Assembly (NCBI GenBank): GCA_009917695.1
Contig: JAACJG010000011.1
Coordinates: 156,997 to 181,345, forward strand
DNA from: Candidatus Rifleibacterium amylolyticum
Lineage (GTDB): Bacteria > Muiribacteriota > Ozemobacteria > Ozemobacterales > Ozemobacteraceae
Reading direction: 5' to 3'
Length of the DNA: 24,349 bases
A program made the position numbers and the translations under genes. The notes under the pieces were generated by a model, which saw nothing but the letters and a program-made list of their open reading frames with translations, made no database searches and was not told where the DNA came from. This document shows positions 2,912 through 15,475 of the stretch, piece after piece. The stretch's first letter is position 1, and every line of letters begins with the position of its first letter.

Positions 2912-3063
2912 GTGAACACCAACCTGATTTTAACTGCGACACCATGGCAAAATACCGACAGAGTTGTCACACCAGTTGTCGCTGAGATTCGTCACAACGC
3001 CTTTTCTGGCAGCTCTTACCGATTCCCCCGATCGCTGGCATGTCATTTGCAATTTAAGCCGGC

Positions 3064-3771
3064 ATGCATTTTCATAATGAACACAACGACATAGCGCATA
3101 CTCAACCTGGCCAGGCGGCCAGTCGTGTGCAGGCGCGCGTCTGGCAGCATGATTTCGCATATCATGCAACATCTGACCGCGGCTTCAATATTTATTTTAC
3201 GCGCGGCATCCTGTTTTATCTGATGGCTTTCATATCAGTCTGTCTTGCCATCCCTTTGATCATTACCACTGGCATAAGTGTCGAAGCATTGATCCGTGAC
3301 CCGTATGAAGGTTTCATGCTGCTTTTCTGCATCATTCTCAACCTGCTGCGAGTTCTGACGGCTGCTATTTTGTACAAATATGTGCGCGACGCCTGGCGTG
3401 AGGTAAGATTCGATGCGTTCGATCAGATGCTGACTATCGAAGATAAACTGCCCTGGTTTGAACTGAGCCGAACGCAGGTCTTCCATATTTCTGATGCAGC
3501 CGGGCTTGAGATCAGAATTCTCAGAACCGTTGATCTTGCCCCGGCCGCTGCCGATGAAGACCCGGAAAACCCGGCCTGTGAAGTGCTCATGCAGTTGAAA
3601 GACGGCAGCGCAATCGTGCTGCTGCCTCGCGTCACATCGATTCAGGAAGCCCGCACTGTGACTTACGAGATTGGCGGTCTGACCGGCCTGACCCTGCTGA
3701 CAGACATTCACTCTCTTTATCGCCATATCCCACGGATAGAACGACAGCTTGCTGATGAAGACTTACTCTGA
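3064..3771 (+). CDS. Membrane protein, hypothetical; the N-terminal start is uncertain
   Basis: The 235-aa ORF has two transmembrane-like segments (ILFYLMAFISVCLAIPLIITTG, FMLLFCIILNLLRVLTAAILY). No recognisable domain. Confidence 0.45.
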   Translation: MHFHNEHNDIAHTQPGQAASRVQARVWQHDFAYHATSDRGFNIYFTRGILFYLMAFISVCLAIPLIITTGISVEALIRDPYEGFMLLFCIILNLLRVLTAAILYKYVRDAWREVRFDAFDQMLTIEDKLPWFELSRTQVFHISDAAGLEIRILRTVDLAPAAADEDPENPACEVLMQLKDGSAIVLLPRVTSIQEARTVTYEIGGLTGLTLLTDIHSLYRHIPRIERQLADEDLL

Positions 3772-3809
3772 TAAAATCTGCATAATGATTCAATGTTGAA
3801 AGGATCCTT

Positions 3810-5594
3810 ATGCAACTGCGGCTAATAGTGTTTTGTCTGACTGCACTGCTGTGTTTTGTTTTTATCACGCATACTGTCACTGCTTCTGATTTTTCTGGTC
3901 GTCAGCTTTTTGCAGCCTTCGAGGAGCTTGCCAGAAAGGGCAGCTTCAATATTTATGCTGATGCTGCTGATGGCAAAATTGCGTCTTTCACGGCTTCTGA
4001 AGGAGAAGACCCTGCTCTGACCCTTGTAAGACTGGCAAAAAACCAGGGTTTGATTGCCTTGCCGATGGGCAGCAGTTTTATGGTAATGCCGCGTGAACGC
4101 TATAACGAGCAGCAGGGACTACAGATCAGAGCGCTTGATTTTTCCAGACTACCAGCGTGCTACGCCAGTGTGAGAATTCGCAGCATATTGCCGCAATCGG
4201 TTAACTCTCATATTGCCAATGAAGCCCACAGCGTTTTTCTATCGGGCTTTCCAGACGATCTCGACGAAGCCGAACTGCTGATTGACCAGTTGTCCTCAGA
4301 GCAGACGCAGCTGCGTGTATACATACAGCTGTCAGCAGCCGATTCGGCGACGAGAACCCGACTTGCTTTTGTATGCATCAACGACATGCCGGCAAACTTT
4401 ACCTTTCAGCCAGCTGCCAGACCAGACGCATTGCTGGCAACTATTACCATTACTCTCAAGGGCAGAGATCAGGCGGTTCTCGCTGCTGCATTCGCCAATT
4501 CCACCGACCCTTCGGCAAAACTGGAAGTCAACCATGACCTCGACCTTCAGAGTGAAACTGCCAAAGAGTTTGTGGTCACTGTCAAAAACGACATCTATAA
4601 CCTCAGCGTGCGGGCAGAACCGATTTCAGCAGAGGCAATTCGCGTCAGCCGACCGCTGTCAGAAAATGACGATGACGAAATCATAATAGACGATGATGAA
4701 GAAGAAGCAACTGACGATTCAGAAGAAGAAAGTGCTGCTGAAACGCCGAAAGTCGAGCTCGATCGACCGGTCGGCGAGGTCTTTGCAAAAATTGCCCGTC
4801 AGAACGGTGCTAATATAGTCTGTGGCAGCAAGGTTGCGGGCACCCTGGCGATCTTTCGTTTCGGTGACAGGCCTTATTATGAAGAAGAATTCAATCTGGT
4901 CGCTCAAGTTAAGGGGCTCAAGGTCCGCAGAATCGGCAACACCTGGCTGGTTGGCGCCGAGAACATGCGTGATGCTGTTGAAAGCAGCCTGTATTCTGTT
5001 CGCCGGTTCAATCATTCAAGTGCCGCCGCCAGAATTGAAGATATCAGGGAAATGCTGAATCGACTGGGGCTGTCAGATAAGGTCCGGGTCGCCCGCGACA
5101 CTTACAGCAACACCCTGATAACTGGAGGCAACAGCCGCGTGATCGATGCCATCGCGAAATATGTCAGGCTGGCAGATGAACAGCCCGACATGATAAAGCT
5201 GCATTGCAAGTTGAATTCAGACAGCCTCGCCTTTGCTGAGGAGCTTGAGGTTCCAGCCCTGCGGCAGATCAGACGCAGTTTTTCCAAGGCCGAAACCCGC
5301 TGTGGAATTGCTATCACACCGGGCTACACTGATAAAAAAGGCAATATCAGCCTTAAATGGCTCATCCAGACAGCGCAGACCGACAACAAGATTTCGATCG
5401 GCAGCTTTGCAATGACTGCAGTGGCTCCCGGCATAGCTCTGGCTGAATTTGACTGGCCGGCCAGAACCCGCCTTGAGCTGGCAGGTACATACAGTCTGCG
5501 TGACCGCAGTCAGGATGACAACTTGTTCTCAGATGGCCCGGAGATCGAAAGCCCGCATGACACAAGTGAAGACCCGTTTTTCGACAAATTTTAA
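3810..5594 (+). CDS. Secreted protein with two secretin-N (STN/N0)-like domains and an acidic linker, but no secretin C-terminal pore domain
   Basis: An AAAGGA ribosome-binding site precedes the ATG and the product starts with a signal peptide (MQLRLIVFCLTALLCFVFITHTVTA). Two segments fit the STN/N0 pattern of secretins and TonB-dependent receptors: LFAAFEELARKGSFNIYADAADGKIASF...LTLVRLAKNQGLIAL and VGEVFAKIARQNGANIVCGSKVAGTLAIFRFGDRPYYEEEFNLVAQVKGLKVRRIGNTWLV. An acidic run sits between them (SENDDDEIIIDDDEEEATDDSEEES). Confidence 0.65.
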   Translation: MQLRLIVFCLTALLCFVFITHTVTASDFSGRQLFAAFEELARKGSFNIYADAADGKIASFTASEGEDPALTLVRLAKNQGLIALPMGSSFMVMPRERYNEQQGLQIRALDFSRLPACYASVRIRSILPQSVNSHIANEAHSVFLSGFPDDLDEAELLIDQLSSEQTQLRVYIQLSAADSATRTRLAFVCINDMPANFTFQPAARPDALLATITITLKGRDQAVLAAAFANSTDPSAKLEVNHDLDLQSETAKEFVVTVKNDIYNLSVRAEPISAEAIRVSRPLSENDDDEIIIDDDEEEATDDSEEESAAETPKVELDRPVGEVFAKIARQNGANIVCGSKVAGTLAIFRFGDRPYYEEEFNLVAQVKGLKVRRIGNTWLVGAENMRDAVESSLYSVRRFNHSSAAARIEDIREMLNRLGLSDKVRVARDTYSNTLITGGNSRVIDAIAKYVRLADEQPDMIKLHCKLNSDSLAFAEELEVPALRQIRRSFSKAETRCGIAITPGYTDKKGNISLKWLIQTAQTDNKISIGSFAMTAVAPGIALAEFDWPARTRLELAGTYSLRDRSQDDNLFSDGPEIESPHDTSEDPFFDKF

Positions 5595-7176: not shown

Positions 7177-7443
7177 TCATAGAATCTCTGAATGCGAACC
7201 GGTTCGGATAAATACAATCGTATCGTCTTCGATGCGATATATCAAAAGCCAGTCCGGCCCCAGATGACATTCTCTACAACCTTTCCAGTTTCCGATCAAA
7301 TCGTGATCACGGAACCTGCTCTCAAGTTTTTCCTCTTGCTGTAGCCTTATCATTACATTCTTGAGAGTCGCAATATTGCGGCCCTGCTTCCCGGCTTTTT
7401 TGTAATCTTTTTTGAATTTACTGCCATACTGGGCCTTAAGCAT
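7177..7443 (-). CDS. yafQ: Type II toxin of the YafQ/RelE family (mRNA interferase)
   Basis: HDLIGNWKGCRECHLGPDWLLIYRIEDDTIVFIRTGSHSEIL matches the YafQ C-terminal signature. The ATG at 7441-7443 overlaps the stop of the upstream antitoxin gene by 8 nt. Confidence 0.85.
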   Translation of the reverse strand: MLKAQYGSKFKKDYKKAGKQGRNIATLKNVMIRLQQEEKLESRFRDHDLIGNWKGCRECHLGPDWLLIYRIEDDTIVFIRTGSHSEIL

Positions 7444-7699
7444 CCAGATCCTCAAACATTTCCTCAGGTGTGTTATAAACTTTGCTCAGGTTCTTGCCCT
7501 CAATAGCCTCTTCAATCGCTTTTATCGTTTCAGGATTGGTAATCTTCACCGGAAATGGCAATCCCTGTTCCATGATGATCCGTCTGAAAAAAATGCCAAT
7601 TGCTTCACTGGTAGTCAGGCCGAGAGTCTTCAAAACCTTTTCAACCTCGGTTTTTATACCGGGCTCAATCCGTGTCTGGATAGTAGCAGTTTTACTCAT
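7436..7699 (-). CDS. dinJ: Type II antitoxin of the DinJ/RelB family
   Basis: The 87-aa protein begins MSKTATIQTRIEPGIKTEVEKVLKTLGLTTSEAIGIFFRRII, a ribbon-helix-helix DinJ-like N-terminus. An AGGAGA ribosome-binding site precedes the ATG, and the gene is immediately upstream of the YafQ-like gene. Confidence 0.85.
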   Translation of the reverse strand: MSKTATIQTRIEPGIKTEVEKVLKTLGLTTSEAIGIFFRRIIMEQGLPFPVKITNPETIKAIEEAIEGKNLSKVYNTPEEMFEDLDA

Positions 7700-7726
7700 A
7701 ATTTATTCTCCTGCTATAATTGTAAT

Positions 7727-7744
7727 CTAATGTAACTACATTAG
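7727..7744. promoter_or_regulatory. Perfect 8-bp inverted repeat CTAATGTA-AC-TACATTAG in the dinJ-yafQ promoter region; probable autoregulatory operator
   Basis: Read directly from the sequence. It lies about 30 bp upstream of the dinJ start (minus strand) within AT-rich promoter-like sequence. Confidence 0.45.
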
Positions 7745-7832
7745 CAATACAATTCGACGATTTCATAGAACTACGCCGACAAGGAAGAAAACCGATGTCA
7801 GACAAAAACCTTCGCCAGGCACGCCACGATAG

Positions 7833-9206
7833 TCAGTGGGACACCTTGAGAAACTGCAGATCGTCTGGGGTGCCGGTCTTAAGATCTGAGCCCGGGCTCA
7901 GCAGCGAAGGCGCTGAAGCGTTGTAATTCCAGGCGGCTGCGGTAAACGGGTCTTGCGGCAGCGAGGCCACGCCAAGCCAGGATGCGACTTCGCCAAGATC
8001 GGCCGGCCAGTTGCCATTTTCATTATGGTAAGCGTGCAACGCAACGGCCAGAGCGCCACCACGCAGCATTGCCCTGGTTTTGACCGACGTAATATAAAGC
8101 GTGTCAAGATTCGGCATCATCGTGCCCAGCAATAGCTGCATAAACGAAGTATCCGGCATGAAGAAGAATCTGGTGTAATGCAGGCCGAAACTCGCGTTGA
8201 ACTGTTTTAACGGGCGGGCCAGTTCGTGAACTTGCGCAAGCCGTTTTATCGCCTGCGGGTATGGTTCGGCGCAAACCTGTCGGAAGCCACTCATAATCGG
8301 GACAAGATAAGAGTCAACGACAGCCTGATCACTGAAAAGTGCCACAAGAGCGTGAGGATTTCTACCGAAAGTTTTCATGGCTTCACCGTTGTCTATGGCT
8401 CTCTGCCAATTGCGGGCAAAAGCCGGCCAGAAGTTGAGCTCGTTGGAAAGCACGCGTTCCGGCGAGGGGTATGACTTCTCCAGGGTTTCAGACCATTGCA
8501 GAACCTGGATGGCGTCCGCTTTGCTGCTTTTAATTGTCGGAGCGAGTTCACGCAGCAGACTGCCAGTCAACTGCCCGATGTTTTCGCCAATTGCGTGCCC
8601 CAGGATGGAAAGCGCACCAGTCCAGGTTTCGTGAATTTCAAGAATAGCGCCGACTGCCGCCGGAGCGAATGCAGCAAGCAGTGCCTGCTGCGAGTTCCCC
8701 TGTCGGGCAGCCTGCCATGCCAGCAACGCGCAAAAACGGGCACTGGTTCTGATCGGTACGTATGAAAGTGCTCCAACGTAACAGTTTTTTTCAGAGGGTT
8801 CGGGTGCTGCAACCGGAAAAGATGCCAACAGCTGCGGCAATCTGTCGCATATTGCCCGGGTTCTGGCATCGAGATCGGGAACATTGGCAAGCCAGGCTTC
8901 GATTTTAGCATCTTCAGCAAAAAATTCGCCGCTGCTTTTTCCCCCTTCACCCGCCAGACTGTAAAGCTGACTGTATGTTTCAGATGCCGCTGGTGGCATG
9001 ACCCCGTCAATGAGTGCCATGGGATTGGCGACTGATGAGTTCACGGCCGCCCTGAGATCGGGTTCAGACTTCTGCAGCTGGTTGGTGTTGAGGAAGCTGG
9101 CGTTCAGGTCATACCATAGCGTCAGCAGCCGATAACTCTGGATCAGCGAATATAATATGAGAGCAGCTCCCAGAATCACTCTGGTTTTGCTTTTTATCTT
9201 TATCAT
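7833..9206 (-). CDS. Large N-terminally membrane-anchored protein, hypothetical
   Basis: This 457-aa ORF is the longest open frame here. Its N-terminus KTRVILGAALILYSLIQSY is a hydrophobic anchor. No recognisable catalytic motifs. Confidence 0.55.
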   Translation of the reverse strand: MIKIKSKTRVILGAALILYSLIQSYRLLTLWYDLNASFLNTNQLQKSEPDLRAAVNSSVANPMALIDGVMPPAASETYSQLYSLAGEGGKSSGEFFAEDAKIEAWLANVPDLDARTRAICDRLPQLLASFPVAAPEPSEKNCYVGALSYVPIRTSARFCALLAWQAARQGNSQQALLAAFAPAAVGAILEIHETWTGALSILGHAIGENIGQLTGSLLRELAPTIKSSKADAIQVLQWSETLEKSYPSPERVLSNELNFWPAFARNWQRAIDNGEAMKTFGRNPHALVALFSDQAVVDSYLVPIMSGFRQVCAEPYPQAIKRLAQVHELARPLKQFNASFGLHYTRFFFMPDTSFMQLLLGTMMPNLDTLYITSVKTRAMLRGGALAVALHAYHNENGNWPADLGEVASWLGVASLPQDPFTAAAWNYNASAPSLLSPGSDLKTGTPDDLQFLKVSH

Positions 9207-11295: not shown

Positions 11296-11549
11296 TTACG
11301 CCTCACCGAGAATTACTGGAAAGCGCCCGGAAACATCAGCCTCAACGTAGTCTATAGGCTTGGTTTTGGGTTCTGGAATTTTCTTTCCCATATCCATTCT
11401 TGCCGCAACCCATGCAAGAACAGCGTCTTTTCCGTTTTCAAGCGCTTCTTCTTCGGTTTCGCCATCAGACATACATCCGGGCAGATCCGGGCTTCTTTTC
11501 TTTTTCGCCGGAATTCCCAGCCCGGGGCATCTTCATCACATCTTGACAT
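11296..11549 (-). pseudogene. HicB-family antitoxin gene (UPF0150, RNase H-like fold) disrupted by a frameshift, with no hicA partner
   Basis: The minus-strand frame ending at TAA (11296-11298) encodes ...SPDLPGCMSDGETEEEALENGKDAVLAWVAARMDMGKKIPEP..., the HicB PDLPGC-x-S-x-G-x-T-x-EEAL-EN signature. That frame has no start codon upstream of the motif. An N-terminal piece (MSRCDEDAPGWEF) is in another frame. The two frames switch within the A-run CGAAAAAGAAAAGAAG. Confidence 0.55.
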
Positions 11550-11579: not shown

Positions 11580-11861
11580 ATGTGGAAAATATACGAACAC
11601 AAAAACCTGTTAAAAGCACTTGAAATGCTGCCTGTAGAAATCCTTAAGCGATATGAAAAGTGGAAAGATATAGTGGCAATTTCAGGCCCTGTTGGACTAA
11701 GGCAGATTAAAGGTTTCAATGACGAGCCATTGCGTGGGGCATGGAAAGGATACCGCTCATCTCGTCTCAATATTCAGTATCGCATTATTTACAAAATAGA
11801 AAACGAACAATTTTTTGTAAAAGTTGTTAAGGTAACGGCTCATGACTATCGGAGGAAATGA
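11580..11861 (+). CDS. higB: Type II toxin of the RelE/ParE superfamily, HigB-like
   Basis: The 93-aa protein ...FNDEPLRGAWKGYRSSRLNIQYRIIYKIENEQFFVKVVKVTAHDY matches the HigB/RelE fold signature. It is followed 1 nt later by an HTH antitoxin gene; toxin-first order is typical of higBA. Confidence 0.8.
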   Translation: MWKIYEHKNLLKALEMLPVEILKRYEKWKDIVAISGPVGLRQIKGFNDEPLRGAWKGYRSSRLNIQYRIIYKIENEQFFVKVVKVTAHDYRRK

Positions 11862-11862
11862 A

Positions 11863-12123
11863 ATGAAAGACTACATCGAGGCAAAAAAAAGAGCAGAAGT
11901 GTCTGTTGGCGAATCCGTAAGAATAATTCGTGAGCTCCAGAATTTAAGCCAGAGTGAGCTGTCTCAACTGACTGGCATACCTCAATCAACGCTTTCGGCT
12001 ATTGAGCACGATAAAATCAATCTGGGTGTTGAGAGAGCCAAAGTATTAGCAAGGGCTTTGAAATGTCATCCGGCTGTTCTGGTTTTCCCAGGCTGGGATG
12101 TAAGTCTGGAAATTGCGGCGTAA
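11863..12123 (+). CDS. higA: HTH_XRE-family antitoxin, HigA-like
   Basis: A GGAGGA ribosome-binding site precedes the ATG at 11863. VRIIRELQNLSQSELSQLTGIPQSTLSAIEHDKINLGVERAKVLARAL is a Cro/C1-type helix-turn-helix. Confidence 0.75.
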   Translation: MKDYIEAKKRAEVSVGESVRIIRELQNLSQSELSQLTGIPQSTLSAIEHDKINLGVERAKVLARALKCHPAVLVFPGWDVSLEIAA

Positions 12124-12131
12124 CCCCCGGA

Positions 12132-12500
12132 TTACTTTTTTGCTTTGCCGGCCGGCGCTGCCTTTGCAGAGGTTTTCGCCGGCTTTTTCTTCGGCTTCGG
12201 TTCGGGCAGTTCCTGTGTGGTGATTCTGATGAGCTCGCACAGCCATTCGCGATCTTCGAACTGGCCGTCGATGAGAAAATTCGGCTTCGCGCCAGGATAC
12301 GGCTGGCCCTCGACCACCTCACCGATAAAGGCGCGCCCGCCTGCCGTCGGCTTGACGAACAGCTGGTTATCGCACACCATGGCAACAACCTTGCCGCCGC
12401 AATAAATGGCATACTCGCCAAACATCTTTTTGCAGCTGACACCCTTCACATCCCGCAGCTGATCAACGATAAATTCGACAAATTCCGCATCAGAAGCCAT
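12132..12500 (-). CDS. TfoX/Sxy N-terminal-domain protein with a lysine-rich C-terminal tail
   Basis: A GAGGT ribosome-binding site precedes the ATG at 12500. MFGEYAIYCGGKVVAMVCDNQLFVKPT fits the TfoX_N core. The tail EPKPKKKPAKTSAKAAPAGKAKK is basic. Confidence 0.6.
   Translation of the reverse strand: MASDAEFVEFIVDQLRDVKGVSCKKMFGEYAIYCGGKVVAMVCDNQLFVKPTAGGRAFIGEVVEGQPYPGAKPNFLIDGQFEDREWLCELIRITTQELPEPKPKKKPAKTSAKAAPAGKAKK
12135..12164. repeat. 30-bp direct repeat, copy 2. It overlaps the 3' end of the TfoX-like gene and encodes its C-terminal tail ...KAAPAGKAKK
   Basis: CTTTTTTGCTTTGCCGGCCGGCGCTGCCTT, 29/30 identical to copy 1 at 10220-10249 and in the same orientation. Confidence 0.7.
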
Positions 12501-12597
12501 ATTGCACCTCAAGTTTTCAAAGTAATGCCAGTCCGAATCAGGACTACCATTCTGGCTTTTACGAAGGTATACTGAATTTTAAAGGATACGTCTGCAA

Positions 12598-12900
12598 ATG
12601 AACACAAAAATCACATATCAATATCGTGACGCCAGTAACTATAAGCTTTCTAGCGAAGTCATCATCAAAGGCGAACTGAGTTTTAAAGACCTAGAACCCT
12701 ACTTGATCGATAGCCAATTTTTTGTGCCCGAGGAGTTGCATTTGCCTCGCCTGCAATTCGACACTCACACAGAAGACGACCACGATTGGCATGAATTCCT
12801 AAGTCTCGAACCCTGCACCGACCCGCCATCAATCGGCTTGACAAGCCAAAAGCTTATCAAGGCTGCAAAAAGCTACAAGTTAAGCCATCCATACATCTAA
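12598..12900 (+). CDS. Small hypothetical protein (100 aa), first gene of an AT-rich cassette
   Basis: An AAGGA ribosome-binding site lies 12 nt upstream. Local GC is about 38% against about 55% in the flanks. The stop is 4 nt before the HNH gene's ATG. Confidence 0.5.
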   Translation: MNTKITYQYRDASNYKLSSEVIIKGELSFKDLEPYLIDSQFFVPEELHLPRLQFDTHTEDDHDWHEFLSLEPCTDPPSIGLTSQKLIKAAKSYKLSHPYI

Positions 12901-12904
12901 CTCA

Positions 12905-13654
12905 ATGACTAAAAATAACAACTGGACAAGAGAAGAGACGATCATTGCATTCGAACTTTATTGCAGAACACCATTCGGTAGAATGCATAAGGGTAACCCT
13001 GAAATAATCGAATTAGCGAAGACTATAACGAGAACCCCAAGTGCCGTGGCACTCAAATTATGTAATTTTGCACATTTAGACCCGACCTTGTCTCAAAAAG
13101 GCGCCTCACATGGGAGTAAGCAAGATCAAAAAATTTGGGACGAGTTCGCTTCGAATCTTGAATCGCTGATTGAAGCTGCCCATGCAATTAAGAAAAGATT
13201 AAAAATGCCTGTCGAAAGTGAAACTGACGAGCCAATTGACCAAATACGCGAAACAGACAAGTTTGCTACAGTCAAAACTAGAGTTGGTCAACGATTCTTT
13301 CGCGCTATGATTCTATCAAGTTATGATACAAAGTGCTGTGTCACCGGTATTGGCTTATCAGAAATATTGGTTGCCAGCCATATTATTCCTTGGTCTGTTG
13401 ACAAAGACCATAGATTGAACCCGAGAAATGGCCTGTGTTTGAACGTGATGCATGATAAAGTGTTCGATCTTGGCATGATGAGCTTGGACGATGATTACCG
13501 AGTGATTTTTTCGAGTAAAATTAAAGATGTTGCAGCCAAGAATGGTCTAGACTTTTTATTGCGGACTGAAGGACACAGAATTACGCTCCCCAAAAGATTT
13601 TTGCCTGATATATCACTCATCCAACAACACAGAATTCAAAATGGTTTTGAATGA
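12905..13654 (+). CDS. HNH endonuclease (HNH_2 / predicted restriction endonuclease type) with an N-terminal W-x-EE-x-AL-LY domain
   Basis: RVGQRFFRAMILSSYDTKCCVTGIGLSEILVASHIIPWSVDKDHRLNPRNGLCLNVMHDKVFDLGMMSLDDDY is the HNH_2 motif set (R-GQ-FR...Y...C-TG...L-A-HI-P...NGL-L...H--FD-G). The N-terminus reads NWTREETIIAFELYCRTPFG. The gene is AT-rich. Confidence 0.8.
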   Translation: MTKNNNWTREETIIAFELYCRTPFGRMHKGNPEIIELAKTITRTPSAVALKLCNFAHLDPTLSQKGASHGSKQDQKIWDEFASNLESLIEAAHAIKKRLKMPVESETDEPIDQIRETDKFATVKTRVGQRFFRAMILSSYDTKCCVTGIGLSEILVASHIIPWSVDKDHRLNPRNGLCLNVMHDKVFDLGMMSLDDDYRVIFSSKIKDVAAKNGLDFLLRTEGHRITLPKRFLPDISLIQQHRIQNGFE

Positions 13655-14357
13655 ACCGTAGTAAAAATTTCAGCATAATAGTTTTTGTCATATGCATTTC
13701 ACTGATGTTCTGTGAAAGTATTTATGCTGATGTAATAAAAGAAATTTCTTCATCCACCTATCACAATGAATCTTATGAGCAGAGATTTGCTGAGACGGAA
13801 GAACTCATGAAGCGGGGGGTGGCGCTGGGGCGGGAGAAGAAATATGCTGAGTCGGCGGCGGAGCTTAGGAAGGCGATCGAGCTGATTCCGGATAATGGGC
13901 CGCTGTGGTATAACCTCGGGATGTCGCTTTATAATGGCGGCGAGACGGATGCGGCCGGCGGGCGTGGCAGAAGACGGTTGAGCTGCGGCCGGATTATGCG
14001 GATGCCTGGTATATGCTTGGGATGCTCGATGCGAAAGAAGGTCGCAGCGCCGAGGCGATCGCGGCCTATGCGAAAAGTTCAGAACTCAAACCGCAGGACG
14101 GCGAAGCACAGGCAGCGCTGGTTAGAGAGTGTCTCAAACTCGCCCGACGTAAGTACGAGCAGCTGCAGCAGAGCGACCCGGCCCGCGCGAAAAAGCTGGC
14201 CGGCGAATTTCCCGGCAATGTTTCGCCTGCCAGCGGCAGCGGAAAACACCCGCTCGCCGATACCGAAATTCCGGGAACCGGCAAAACCTTCGACGAACTG
14301 CTTGAAATTTTCAAGCACATACCATTTCAGCGCACTCAGCCGAAAAGCCGACATTAA
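13651..14357 (+). pseudogene. TPR-repeat protein gene with a signal peptide, carrying a frameshift near 13945-13960
   Basis: The ATG overlaps the HNH stop (ATGA). Frame A gives a signal peptide (MNRSKNFSIIVFVICISLMFCESIYA) and a TPR helix (LWYNLGMSLYNGGETDAA). It then turns Arg-rich nonsense. Frame B continues the TPR sequence (AWQKTVELRPDYADAWYMLGMLDAKEGRSAEAIAAYAKSSELKPQDG...) to TAA at 14355-14357. The frames switch in the GC run GCCGGCGGGCGTGG. Confidence 0.55.
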
Positions 14358-15475
14358 AGGTATAGTTCTTTGAGAAAACGGTCAGCGTCGACAAGGTCGA
14401 TGTTGCCGGACGACTGCTCGCGTTTGAGGTCTTTGACGACCTGAACCCCTTTAAGGTTGTATTTTTCGCAGAACCAGACAAGGCCGGCTGCGATTTTATC
14501 GCGATCGCTTTTTGCTTCGATTGCCATTAAGACCTGCTGGTCGCGGCACAGGCAGAAATCGACTTCCCTGCCCTCTTTTGTGCGCAGGTATTTAAGCTCG
14601 AGCCTGTCGCCGAGACAGTCGTTACTTGCCAGAACATGCTTGAGCAGGCTTACGGCGAGATGATTTTCGAATTTTGCCCCGATATCGCCAACTACCAGCG
14701 AAGTATCATAAAAATAGACCTTGGGGGCCTTCAAAATTGATCGGCCGATATTGCTTGAATACGTGTAAATCCTGAAGATAATGAACAACGACTCGAGAAT
14801 GCTGATGTAACGGGTAGCGGTGACTGGCGATATTCCGGCGTCGCGTGCGATCGAGGCGATTGAAAGCGGCGAACCGACTGAGCGCCGGAGAATCTCAAAG
14901 ACAATTTTTATCGCATTCAGGTCATTGATATTCTCAAAATTCAGAATATCGGTTCTGATAAGACCGTCAATATACTGATTGCGCCAGCGTCTGGCATCGG
15001 TATCGCTCTCAGCCAGAAAGGGCTCAGGGAAACCGCCGCGTTCGATGAAACGATCGATAGTGGCCAGTTCAGCATGTTCTTTTACTTCAGCCAGGGAAAA
15101 AGGAAGCAGACGATGCGCAAAAAAACGGCCGGCCAGCGAGTCGCCGGTCTGTCTGAATGCATCGAGGCGGGCACTGCCGGTCACCAGAATTCTCAGGCCT
15201 TCTGCTCTGGTGTCGAACACACCTTTGATATAGTTCTTCCAGCCGGGCATCTTGTGCAGTTCATCGAGTATCAGCAAATCAGTATTTCTGGGCCAGGACT
15301 CAGCCTTGATAATCTGCTGATCTTCGAAGCGATCGTAATTCAGATACTGGCTGTGCTTGAATTTTCTGGCGATTTCCTTTGCCAGCCAGGTTTTGCCGAC
15401 CTGCCGGGGGCCGACAATGAAGACAATCTTCTTTTCGAGGTCATGAAGAATCTGATCGATCTGATTTCTGCGCAT
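14354..15475 (-). CDS. AAA-family ATPase (AAA_14 domain plus DUF4143 type)
   Basis: It has a Walker A motif (IVGPRQVGKTW), a Walker B motif (LLILDE) and a C-terminal region typical of COG1373-like ATPases. Confidence 0.8.
   Translation of the reverse strand: MRRNQIDQILHDLEKKIVFIVGPRQVGKTWLAKEIARKFKHSQYLNYDRFEDQQIIKAESWPRNTDLLILDELHKMPGWKNYIKGVFDTRAEGLRILVTGSARLDAFRQTGDSLAGRFFAHRLLPFSLAEVKEHAELATIDRFIERGGFPEPFLAESDTDARRWRNQYIDGLIRTDILNFENINDLNAIKIVFEILRRSVGSPLSIASIARDAGISPVTATRYISILESLFIIFRIYTYSSNIGRSILKAPKVYFYDTSLVVGDIGAKFENHLAVSLLKHVLASNDCLGDRLELKYLRTKEGREVDFCLCRDQQVLMAIEAKSDRDKIAAGLVWFCEKYNLKGVQVVKDLKREQSSGNIDLVDADRFLKELYL

Follow-up and report, generated by a model that had tools for sequence, protein, structure and literature searches.

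What does a gene for a small protein of no recognised family do directly ahead of a gene for a restriction-type nuclease? The question is raised by a stretch of 24,349 nucleotides (nt; 24.3-kb) from Candidatus Rifleibacterium amylolyticum, which is the whole piece of DNA analysed here and is called the window; coordinates are window positions unless a locus number is given. In the list of open reading frames (ORFs) the small gene spans 12598-12900 on the plus strand and encodes 100 amino acids (aa), and a gene for a 249-aa HNH_2 nuclease (12905-13654, plus strand) begins 4 nt past its stop codon. The small gene and the HNH gene very probably form a functional two-gene unit, an operon at 12598-13654. 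The small protein is a member of a large family without a name, for which the four libraries searched hold no model, and what is new here is this accessory protein family and the repeated association of its members with solitary restriction nucleases and with the DpnD/PcfM domain. The composite explanation proposed for the locus is a type-IV-like restriction operon with a trans-acting modulator of inhibitor type, an account that may well be right but is held with somewhat less than even confidence.

The small protein is acidic, with an isoelectric point (pI) of 5.2, and features the motifs Y7-x-Y9-R-D-A-S-N-Y-K16, F41-F-V-P-E45 and E59-D-D-H-D-W-H65. The motifs that are invariant across the family are YxYRDxxNYK, FFxPE and DDHxWH. 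An earlier first-pass annotation of this DNA had described the protein as belonging to no recognisable family, and this description stands: zero matches were found in Pfam, NCBIfam, PHROG and PADLOC, and likewise none for 96 family members at E ≤ 1. Additionally, neither the window protein nor the 96 stand-alone members match PF14207 (E ≤ 1). The predicted fold is beta-beta-alpha-alpha-beta-alpha, and a comparison of the model with PDB and BFVD gave no significant fold match. The first word-indexed homolog search returned only 10 relatives, which already showed the invariant motifs, and this misleading count was corrected by an exhaustive profile search that recovered more than 2,300. At E ≤ 1e-3 the latter search gave 2,319 representatives of 50% clusters and at E ≤ 1e-10 it gave 991; most are 100-130 aa long. 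A further search gave 807 proteins, for which all source names listed were 'hypothetical protein' with the exception of a Scalindua entry labelled nucleoside-diphosphate-sugar epimerase; only one of the family proteins listed carries a Pfam domain. A Pfam scan of ten longer fusion proteins revealed nothing informative, and a literature search on the small-protein motifs and on PcfM/PF14207 found nothing relevant. Because none of the four libraries holds a model for it, the small family provides a new marker gene for defence-finding tools.

The nuclease is a basic protein (pI 8.6) with two domains and belongs to the HNH_2 restriction-type family. Pfam HNH_2 (PF13391) matches aa 144-195 with 43 bits against a cutoff of 21, and the PADLOC model PDLC04132 'HNH' matches aa 1-244 at profile positions 23-269 of 286 (2e-91, 304 bits); the PADLOC matches of the nuclease are to 'HNH' and type II restriction endonuclease models only. 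More than 4,500 homologs were found, mostly of ~250 aa and often labelled 'putative restriction endonuclease'. The AlphaFold2 (AF2) model, with a predicted local distance difference test score (pLDDT) of 84, features a helical N-terminal domain at aa 9-98, a disordered linker at aa 106-124 and a nuclease domain at aa 127-245. The N-terminal domain is of a DNA-binding type, spans aa 8-98 (12926-13198, plus strand) and goes with the conserved residues W7, L18-Y19-C20, R43 and N54. The first-pass annotation had pointed out a W-x-EE...AL-LY domain at this position, and the alignment confirmed that it is real and conserved, with W7, L18, Y19 and C20 invariant in 40 homologs. The domain is homeodomain/Myb-like, of the helix-turn-helix (HTH) type, and is a putative DNA binder. 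The HNH (beta-beta-alpha-metal) domain at aa 127-245 (13283-13639, plus strand) has the fold of HNH_2 / His-Me finger endonucleases and features the invariant residues C144, H159, N175-G176 and H183-D184. Degeneration of the catalytic residues had been named as a finding that would refute an immunity system; the conserved motif residues, to which we presumptively assign catalytic roles from general knowledge of HNH enzymes, are intact, and when the window protein is aligned with its homologs (40 sequences in all) H159, N175-G176 and H183-D184 do not vary. The catalytic domain is of the TagI/VcaM4I type, and the protein is a predicted DNA endonuclease.

The pairing of the two genes was examined from both sides. 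A scan of one genome per species with a profile of the small family gave more than 516 relatives, of which the best 80 loci, from many phyla, were examined; the pairing counts use the 77 of these loci that have a callable downstream gene. An HNH_2 gene lies directly downstream of the small gene in 33/77 loci, 28 of them with the same N-terminal domain as the window nuclease and 5 with another one. The intergenic gap is most often -4 nt, as an ATGA overlap, and these 4-nt overlaps recur across many phyla. From the other side, metagenomes were scanned with the nuclease profile, which yielded 57 HNH-centred loci with at least 360 nt on each side, and an adjacent small gene was found in 15/57, upstream in 2 and directly downstream in 13. 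The linkage thus survives a change in gene order, since the small gene is adjacent on either side of the nuclease gene. The first-pass annotation had named as a refutation of its reading that the two genes never co-occur elsewhere, and the two sets of loci clearly show that they do. Additionally, the two proteins diverge together, as determined for 25 pairs by a Mantel test (r 0.67, 0 of 2000 permutations). About three quarters of the HNH homologs are unpartnered, and therefore the small protein is an optional accessory and not an obligatory immunity factor.

Two of the loci hold further HNH genes near a member of the small family. At L010 a homolog with 52% identity to the window nuclease has upstream of it, in divergent orientation, a 50-aa remnant of the small family (3789-3938, minus strand; E 1e-7), and is followed by a second HNH_2 gene with a ScoMcrA-type sulfur-binding domain. 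This locus therefore combines a decayed partner with two HNH_2 restriction genes in tandem. L004, on the chromosome of an Ozemobacteraceae metagenome-assembled genome, features a small gene and a gene for a 285-aa HNH_2 protein, followed by a truncated homolog of the window-type HNH_2 nuclease (128 aa) and a convergent PF01844 HNH protein (7631-8017 and 8067-8972), so that three HNH genes lie within 3 kb.

The small family is not restricted to HNH_2 partners. Small-family genes are also found directly upstream, on the same strand, of genes for several unrelated nuclease folds, and the small protein is a separate polypeptide every time. A 974-aa PLD-helicase-DUF3427 protein, which is SauUSI-like and matches PADLOC mREase_IV (7e-88 at L011), is the partner at L011 and L013; at L011 the small gene and the SauUSI-like gene overlap by 4 nt, and a 68%-identical homolog of the window HNH nuclease adjoins them. 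The partners at L001, L005 and L014 are 658-aa DUF2075/SLFN-type helicases, which correspond to the untested PADLOC candidate PDC-S41. A DpnI homolog at L039 has a small-family gene 45 nt upstream, and NOV_C, YhcG, HNH_3 and HNH_4 nucleases are further partners. Two copies of the small gene a few kb apart were observed at L039 (2397-2723 and 5001-5321) and at L013 (3087-3332 and 5001-5300), and one of the two L039 copies precedes the DpnI homolog.

Distant members of the family, mainly from Firmicutes, are found in mobile elements beside ORF6N, KilA-N, DUF6908, TrbL, ParB and LPD28 genes, and 65 loci with the small domain were found in IMG/VR. The mobile-element proteins are longer and the small domain forms their N-terminal part; in 12/60 of the extended members it is followed by DpnD-PcfM (PF14207), and a profile made for the DpnD/PcfM segment identified 27 such ORFs. 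DpnD takes its name from the DpnI cassette of Streptococcus pneumoniae, in which dpnC encodes the endonuclease and dpnD is the second gene. The cassette was described in 1986, and we know of no function assigned to DpnD since then. On annotated plasmids the small-family gene lies within same-strand arrays of small hypothetical genes, and one plasmid copy is directly 3' of an orphan cytosine methyltransferase gene. PcfM of pCF10 (L244) was considered as a carrier of the small domain and was rejected, as it is a stand-alone DpnD/PcfM protein of 63 aa that lacks this domain. The pCF10 genes for PcfM, PcfJ and a protein annotated as belonging to the Cas9 inhibitor AcrIIA9 family form one same-strand cluster (15874-19515 of L244, minus strand). 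The clustering of PcfM with the AcrIIA9-family gene suggests that the DpnD/PcfM domain itself occurs in an anti-defence cluster.

The following mechanism is proposed for the pair. DNA would be bound by the N-terminal homeodomain/Myb-like domain of the nuclease and cleaved by its C-terminal His-Me finger (HNH_2) domain, which is of the TagI/VcaM4I type, so that the enzyme would act as a solitary type-IV-like restriction enzyme with no cognate methyltransferase, on foreign DNA with a mark or feature that is missing from host DNA. The small protein, which would be made just before the nuclease and often by translational coupling, would modulate solitary restriction nucleases in trans. Most likely it would inhibit the nuclease or act as a safety catch on it, so that host DNA is spared until infection, and mobile elements would carry the small domain, often fused to DpnD/PcfM, as a counter-measure to such nucleases. 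A role of the pair in restriction or defence, presumably against phages, is rated as reasonably probable. Inhibition as the effect of the small protein, in which both the interaction and its sign are deduced, is put forward tentatively. Inhibition is favoured because the small protein is a separate polypeptide and is acidic with a basic partner; the small family has a median pI of 4.7 and a net charge of -9, and the nuclease family a pI of ~9. It is also favoured because the small gene usually comes first, often overlaps the start of the nuclease gene and is dispensable for carriage of the nuclease, and because the small domain occurs on mobile elements among counter-defence genes, fused to a domain named after the DpnI partner.

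Several results weigh against this mechanism. No known reader of modified bases or phosphorothioates (SRA, EVE/PUA, a sulfur-binding domain (SBD) or the McrA N-terminal domain) was recognised in the nuclease. Since its N-terminal domain is of the HTH type, with no known modified-base reader, dependence on modification is unsupported and the enzyme is not filed as a proven type IV enzyme. The small-family gene is absent from 42/57 HNH loci, including that of a 69%-identical homolog at L007; hosts thus tolerate the nuclease in its absence, and viability does not require an inhibitor. In favour of a solitary nuclease, a systematic screen for methyltransferase genes, which covered C5 enzymes, found C5-methyltransferase-like ORFs at only 4 of ~240 loci, and neither the neighbours scanned in the window nor nine annotated contexts of homologs yielded a methyltransferase domain. 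The genes adjacent to the pair in the window (TfoX_N, the RelE/Xre pair, TPR and DUF4143) lack the methyltransferase that characterises a type II restriction-modification (R-M) system. A homolog from Neisseria gonorrhoeae (42% identity, 249 aa), however, adjoins Vsr and a broken C5-methyltransferase. This locus, L172, is a Neisseria gonorrhoeae chromosome that is filed in PLSDB as a plasmid; at 2968-4759, between pheS and pheT, it features genes for Vsr, the C5-methyltransferase (133 aa, truncated), a 113-aa ORF and the 249-aa nuclease homolog, and a small-family gene is absent. L172 may represent what is left of a type II system based on the family of the window nuclease, and with such a neighbourhood the nuclease family may include type II members or relics.

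The Neisseria locus also lends itself to a reading in which the two genes are independent, the nuclease being a stand-alone HNH enzyme (the PADLOC category 'RM type HNH') or an orphan of a decayed type II R-M system, and the small gene being unrelated cargo of mobile elements that frequently ends up in defence islands. Each gene is very often found alone and PADLOC scores the HNH nuclease by itself, as this reading would have it. It does not account for the 4-nt overlaps that recur across many phyla, the adjacency in both gene orders, the correlated divergences or the recurrence of small-family genes immediately ahead of other nuclease genes, and independence of the two genes is considered improbable.

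The main argument against a simple inhibitor concerns the invariant residues of the small family, which are polar or aromatic (Y, R, D, N, K, D, H, H) and are the same whatever the partner nuclease is. In the predicted model Y7, Y9, R10, D11, N14, K16, D61, H62 and H65 cluster at one edge of a three-stranded sheet, at the end of strand 1 and where strands 2 and 3 begin. This invariant cluster suggests a ligand-binding, metal-binding or catalytic site, or a single conserved target, over a surface tailored to each partner. For this reason a different role of the small protein stays a serious rival, namely that of a sensor, activator or specificity subunit which, on binding a ligand such as a modified nucleotide, a metal or a phage product, would switch on or target the paired nuclease. 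A separate reader would make sense for a nuclease with no recognised modified-base reader of its own, and the small module is found together with many different effector folds. Sensor domains of restriction enzymes are, however, typically fused to the nuclease, and the small domain was never found fused to one among 150 listed representatives or the loci examined. Most HNH homologs do without the small protein, its strong acidity is unfavourable to DNA binding, and the small-gene arrays of mobile elements and the fusion to DpnD/PcfM fit counter-defence better. A sensor or activator is accordingly regarded as possible but doubtful.

The pair could also be read as a toxin-antitoxin (TA) or addiction module, in which an HNH toxin and a labile acidic antitoxin would stabilise the island and would not restrict phages. 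The small acidic upstream gene product, the basic nuclease and the translational coupling are of the kind expected for such a module; the pair sits among TA modules and both genes are co-inherited. An antitoxin should be obligatory, yet 42/57 HNH loci lack the small gene, and the gene order flips. Moreover, the small protein features no HTH, ribbon-helix-helix (RHH) or AbrB autoregulatory DNA-binding fold, as judged by its predicted fold and by Pfam, and the same small family pairs with large helicase-nucleases that are typical of restriction enzymes. A TA function is thus thought to be distinctly unlikely.

The proposed inhibitor can be extended beyond the HNH pair. In the extended form, the small family and the DpnD/PcfM domain would be general trans-acting regulators of solitary restriction nucleases (type IV or type IIM-like). 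Hosts would couple the small domain to HNH, PLD-helicase, DpnI, NOV_C and DUF2075 nucleases as a safety catch, and on plasmids, integrative and conjugative elements (ICEs) and phages it would serve as a broad counter-defence against type IV enzymes. This generalisation is speculative and held to be less likely than the mechanism proposed for the pair; if true, it would supply a testable function for DpnD as well. Solitary restriction nucleases rank with the most frequent defence genes, and each is usually regarded as a system of a single gene. Here several unrelated nuclease folds are accompanied by a conserved small partner, the domain of which is also present in the small-gene arrays of plasmids and in phage-like elements; this pattern points to an unrecognised layer of control over these nucleases and possibly to a new class of anti-restriction protein. 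The small family may also explain DpnD of the pneumococcal DpnI cassette.

In the window the pair lies in an AT-rich patch. The first-pass annotation had reported that the guanine plus cytosine (GC) content drops to about 38% at 12.55-13.8 kb between flanks of about 55%. The drop is real and is the minimum of the window, but the figures differ: 12540-13800 has 40.0% GC versus 51.1% for the whole window, and the far flanks have 51.6% (left) and 53.0% (right). The GC content of this segment is the lowest among all 1261-bp segments (mean 0.512, standard deviation (sd) 0.035), ~3.2 sd below the mean. Its right edge is abrupt, and the contrast is softer on the left, where 10.2-12.1 kb has 45% GC. 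A search for transposon-like boundaries or target duplications of the patch found none, only short repeats at chance level. Horizontal acquisition of the patch is plausible from its composition. The small gene is separated from a divergent TfoX_N gene by a spacer of 85 nt with 38.8% GC (12513-12597, read on the plus strand), the presumed promoter region, and AAGGA is found 12 nt 5' of the small-gene ATG. A consensus scan for promoters and terminators gave no enrichment above shuffled expectation; the promoter presumably lies in the spacer.

Three linked plus-strand ORFs lie where they had been described, with HNH_2 and TPR matches and an overlap of the HNH stop codon with the ATG of the third (ATGA). 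The third is a TPR ORF (13651-14373, plus strand; TPR_2 match), and a compositional boundary lies inside it, as its first 140 nt (13651-13790) have 30.7% GC and the rest (13791-14373) 58%. Alignment to L006, a 97%-identical locus from another sample, revealed a 1-nt deletion at ~13956 in the window, which breaks the TPR reading frame. Without the deletion the gene would extend to 14357; in L006 it is intact and encodes a TPR protein of 235 aa. The window TPR gene is either a pseudogene or the product of an assembly error. The N-terminus of the TPR protein resembles a signal peptide. No TPR homolog was found beside the small/HNH pair in ~165 other loci. The frameshift and this absence rule out TPR as a third component, and the three-gene cassette that the first-pass annotation had drawn is reduced to the pair.

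The surroundings of the pair are roughly the TA and DUF4143 context that had been claimed. Library domain matches identified the TfoX_N gene (12132-12512), a RelE/ParE-like toxin gene overlapping an Xre-type HTH gene (11580-12123, plus strand) and a HicB-like fragment of 58 aa (11296-11472, minus strand), which is probably a remnant. A toxin of the YafQ family is encoded at 7177-7455 on the minus strand (match to PDB 9lew, E 1e-20). The AAA_14/DUF4143 ATPase gene (14354-15475, minus strand) converges on the TPR gene with overlapping ends and matches the PADLOC single-gene candidate PDC-S01 (4e-57), an untested 'guilt-by-embedding' defence candidate.

Comparison with known systems places the nuclease more readily than its partner. 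The window nuclease would work most like the modification-dependent enzymes TagI (SRA-HNH) and VcaM4I (EVE-HNH) (PDB 6ghs, 6yex), with which it shares its catalytic HNH type. They differ in the N-terminal part, which is an SRA, EVE or PUA base-flipping reader in the known enzymes and a homeodomain/Myb-like domain in the window nuclease. Pairing with a small gene is a feature of the window HNH family (15/57 loci), and the comparison with TagI and VcaM4I was one of domains. Papers that use PADLOC report 'RM type HNH' as a category of a single HNH endonuclease gene, and PDLC04132 presumably underlies this category; the unit in the window adds to that single gene a small partner with no PADLOC match. 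PADLOC-DB v2 holds no named multi-gene system that contains both genes. The suggestion of an uncharacterised two- or three-gene system thus survives for the pair, which matches no named PADLOC system, and not for the nuclease alone, which is of a known kind (PADLOC 'HNH', TagI/VcaM4I type). SauUSI-type enzymes, which combine a PLD nuclease, a superfamily 2 (SF2) helicase and DUF3427, have small-family genes directly upstream as the window HNH nuclease does; they differ from it in the fold and size of the effector, and the window holds no such enzyme.

For the small protein the nearest analogues are anti-restriction proteins. TifA (Orf65) of the enterococcal phage phi47 has two domains, one of them SH3-like, and inhibits divergent type IV enzymes (PMC11322646). 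TifA, Ocr and ArdA are small, strongly acidic and act in trans on restriction enzymes, and the small family is likewise small, acidic and present on mobile elements. Inhibition by the small family is deduced, unlike that by TifA, which is an analogue and not a homolog: homology was ruled out by the different architecture, and no sequence or fold similarity of the small protein to Ocr, ArdA, ArdB/KlcA or TifA was found. The remaining comparison is with the DpnI cassette, whose gene names dpnC and dpnD appear in PMC3573125. The tie of DpnD-PcfM (PF14207) to the small family is by domain fusion only, and the window protein itself carries no PF14207. Like the pairs described here, the DpnI cassette combines a solitary restriction nuclease, which in the case of DpnI is methyl-dependent, with a small protein of unassigned role.

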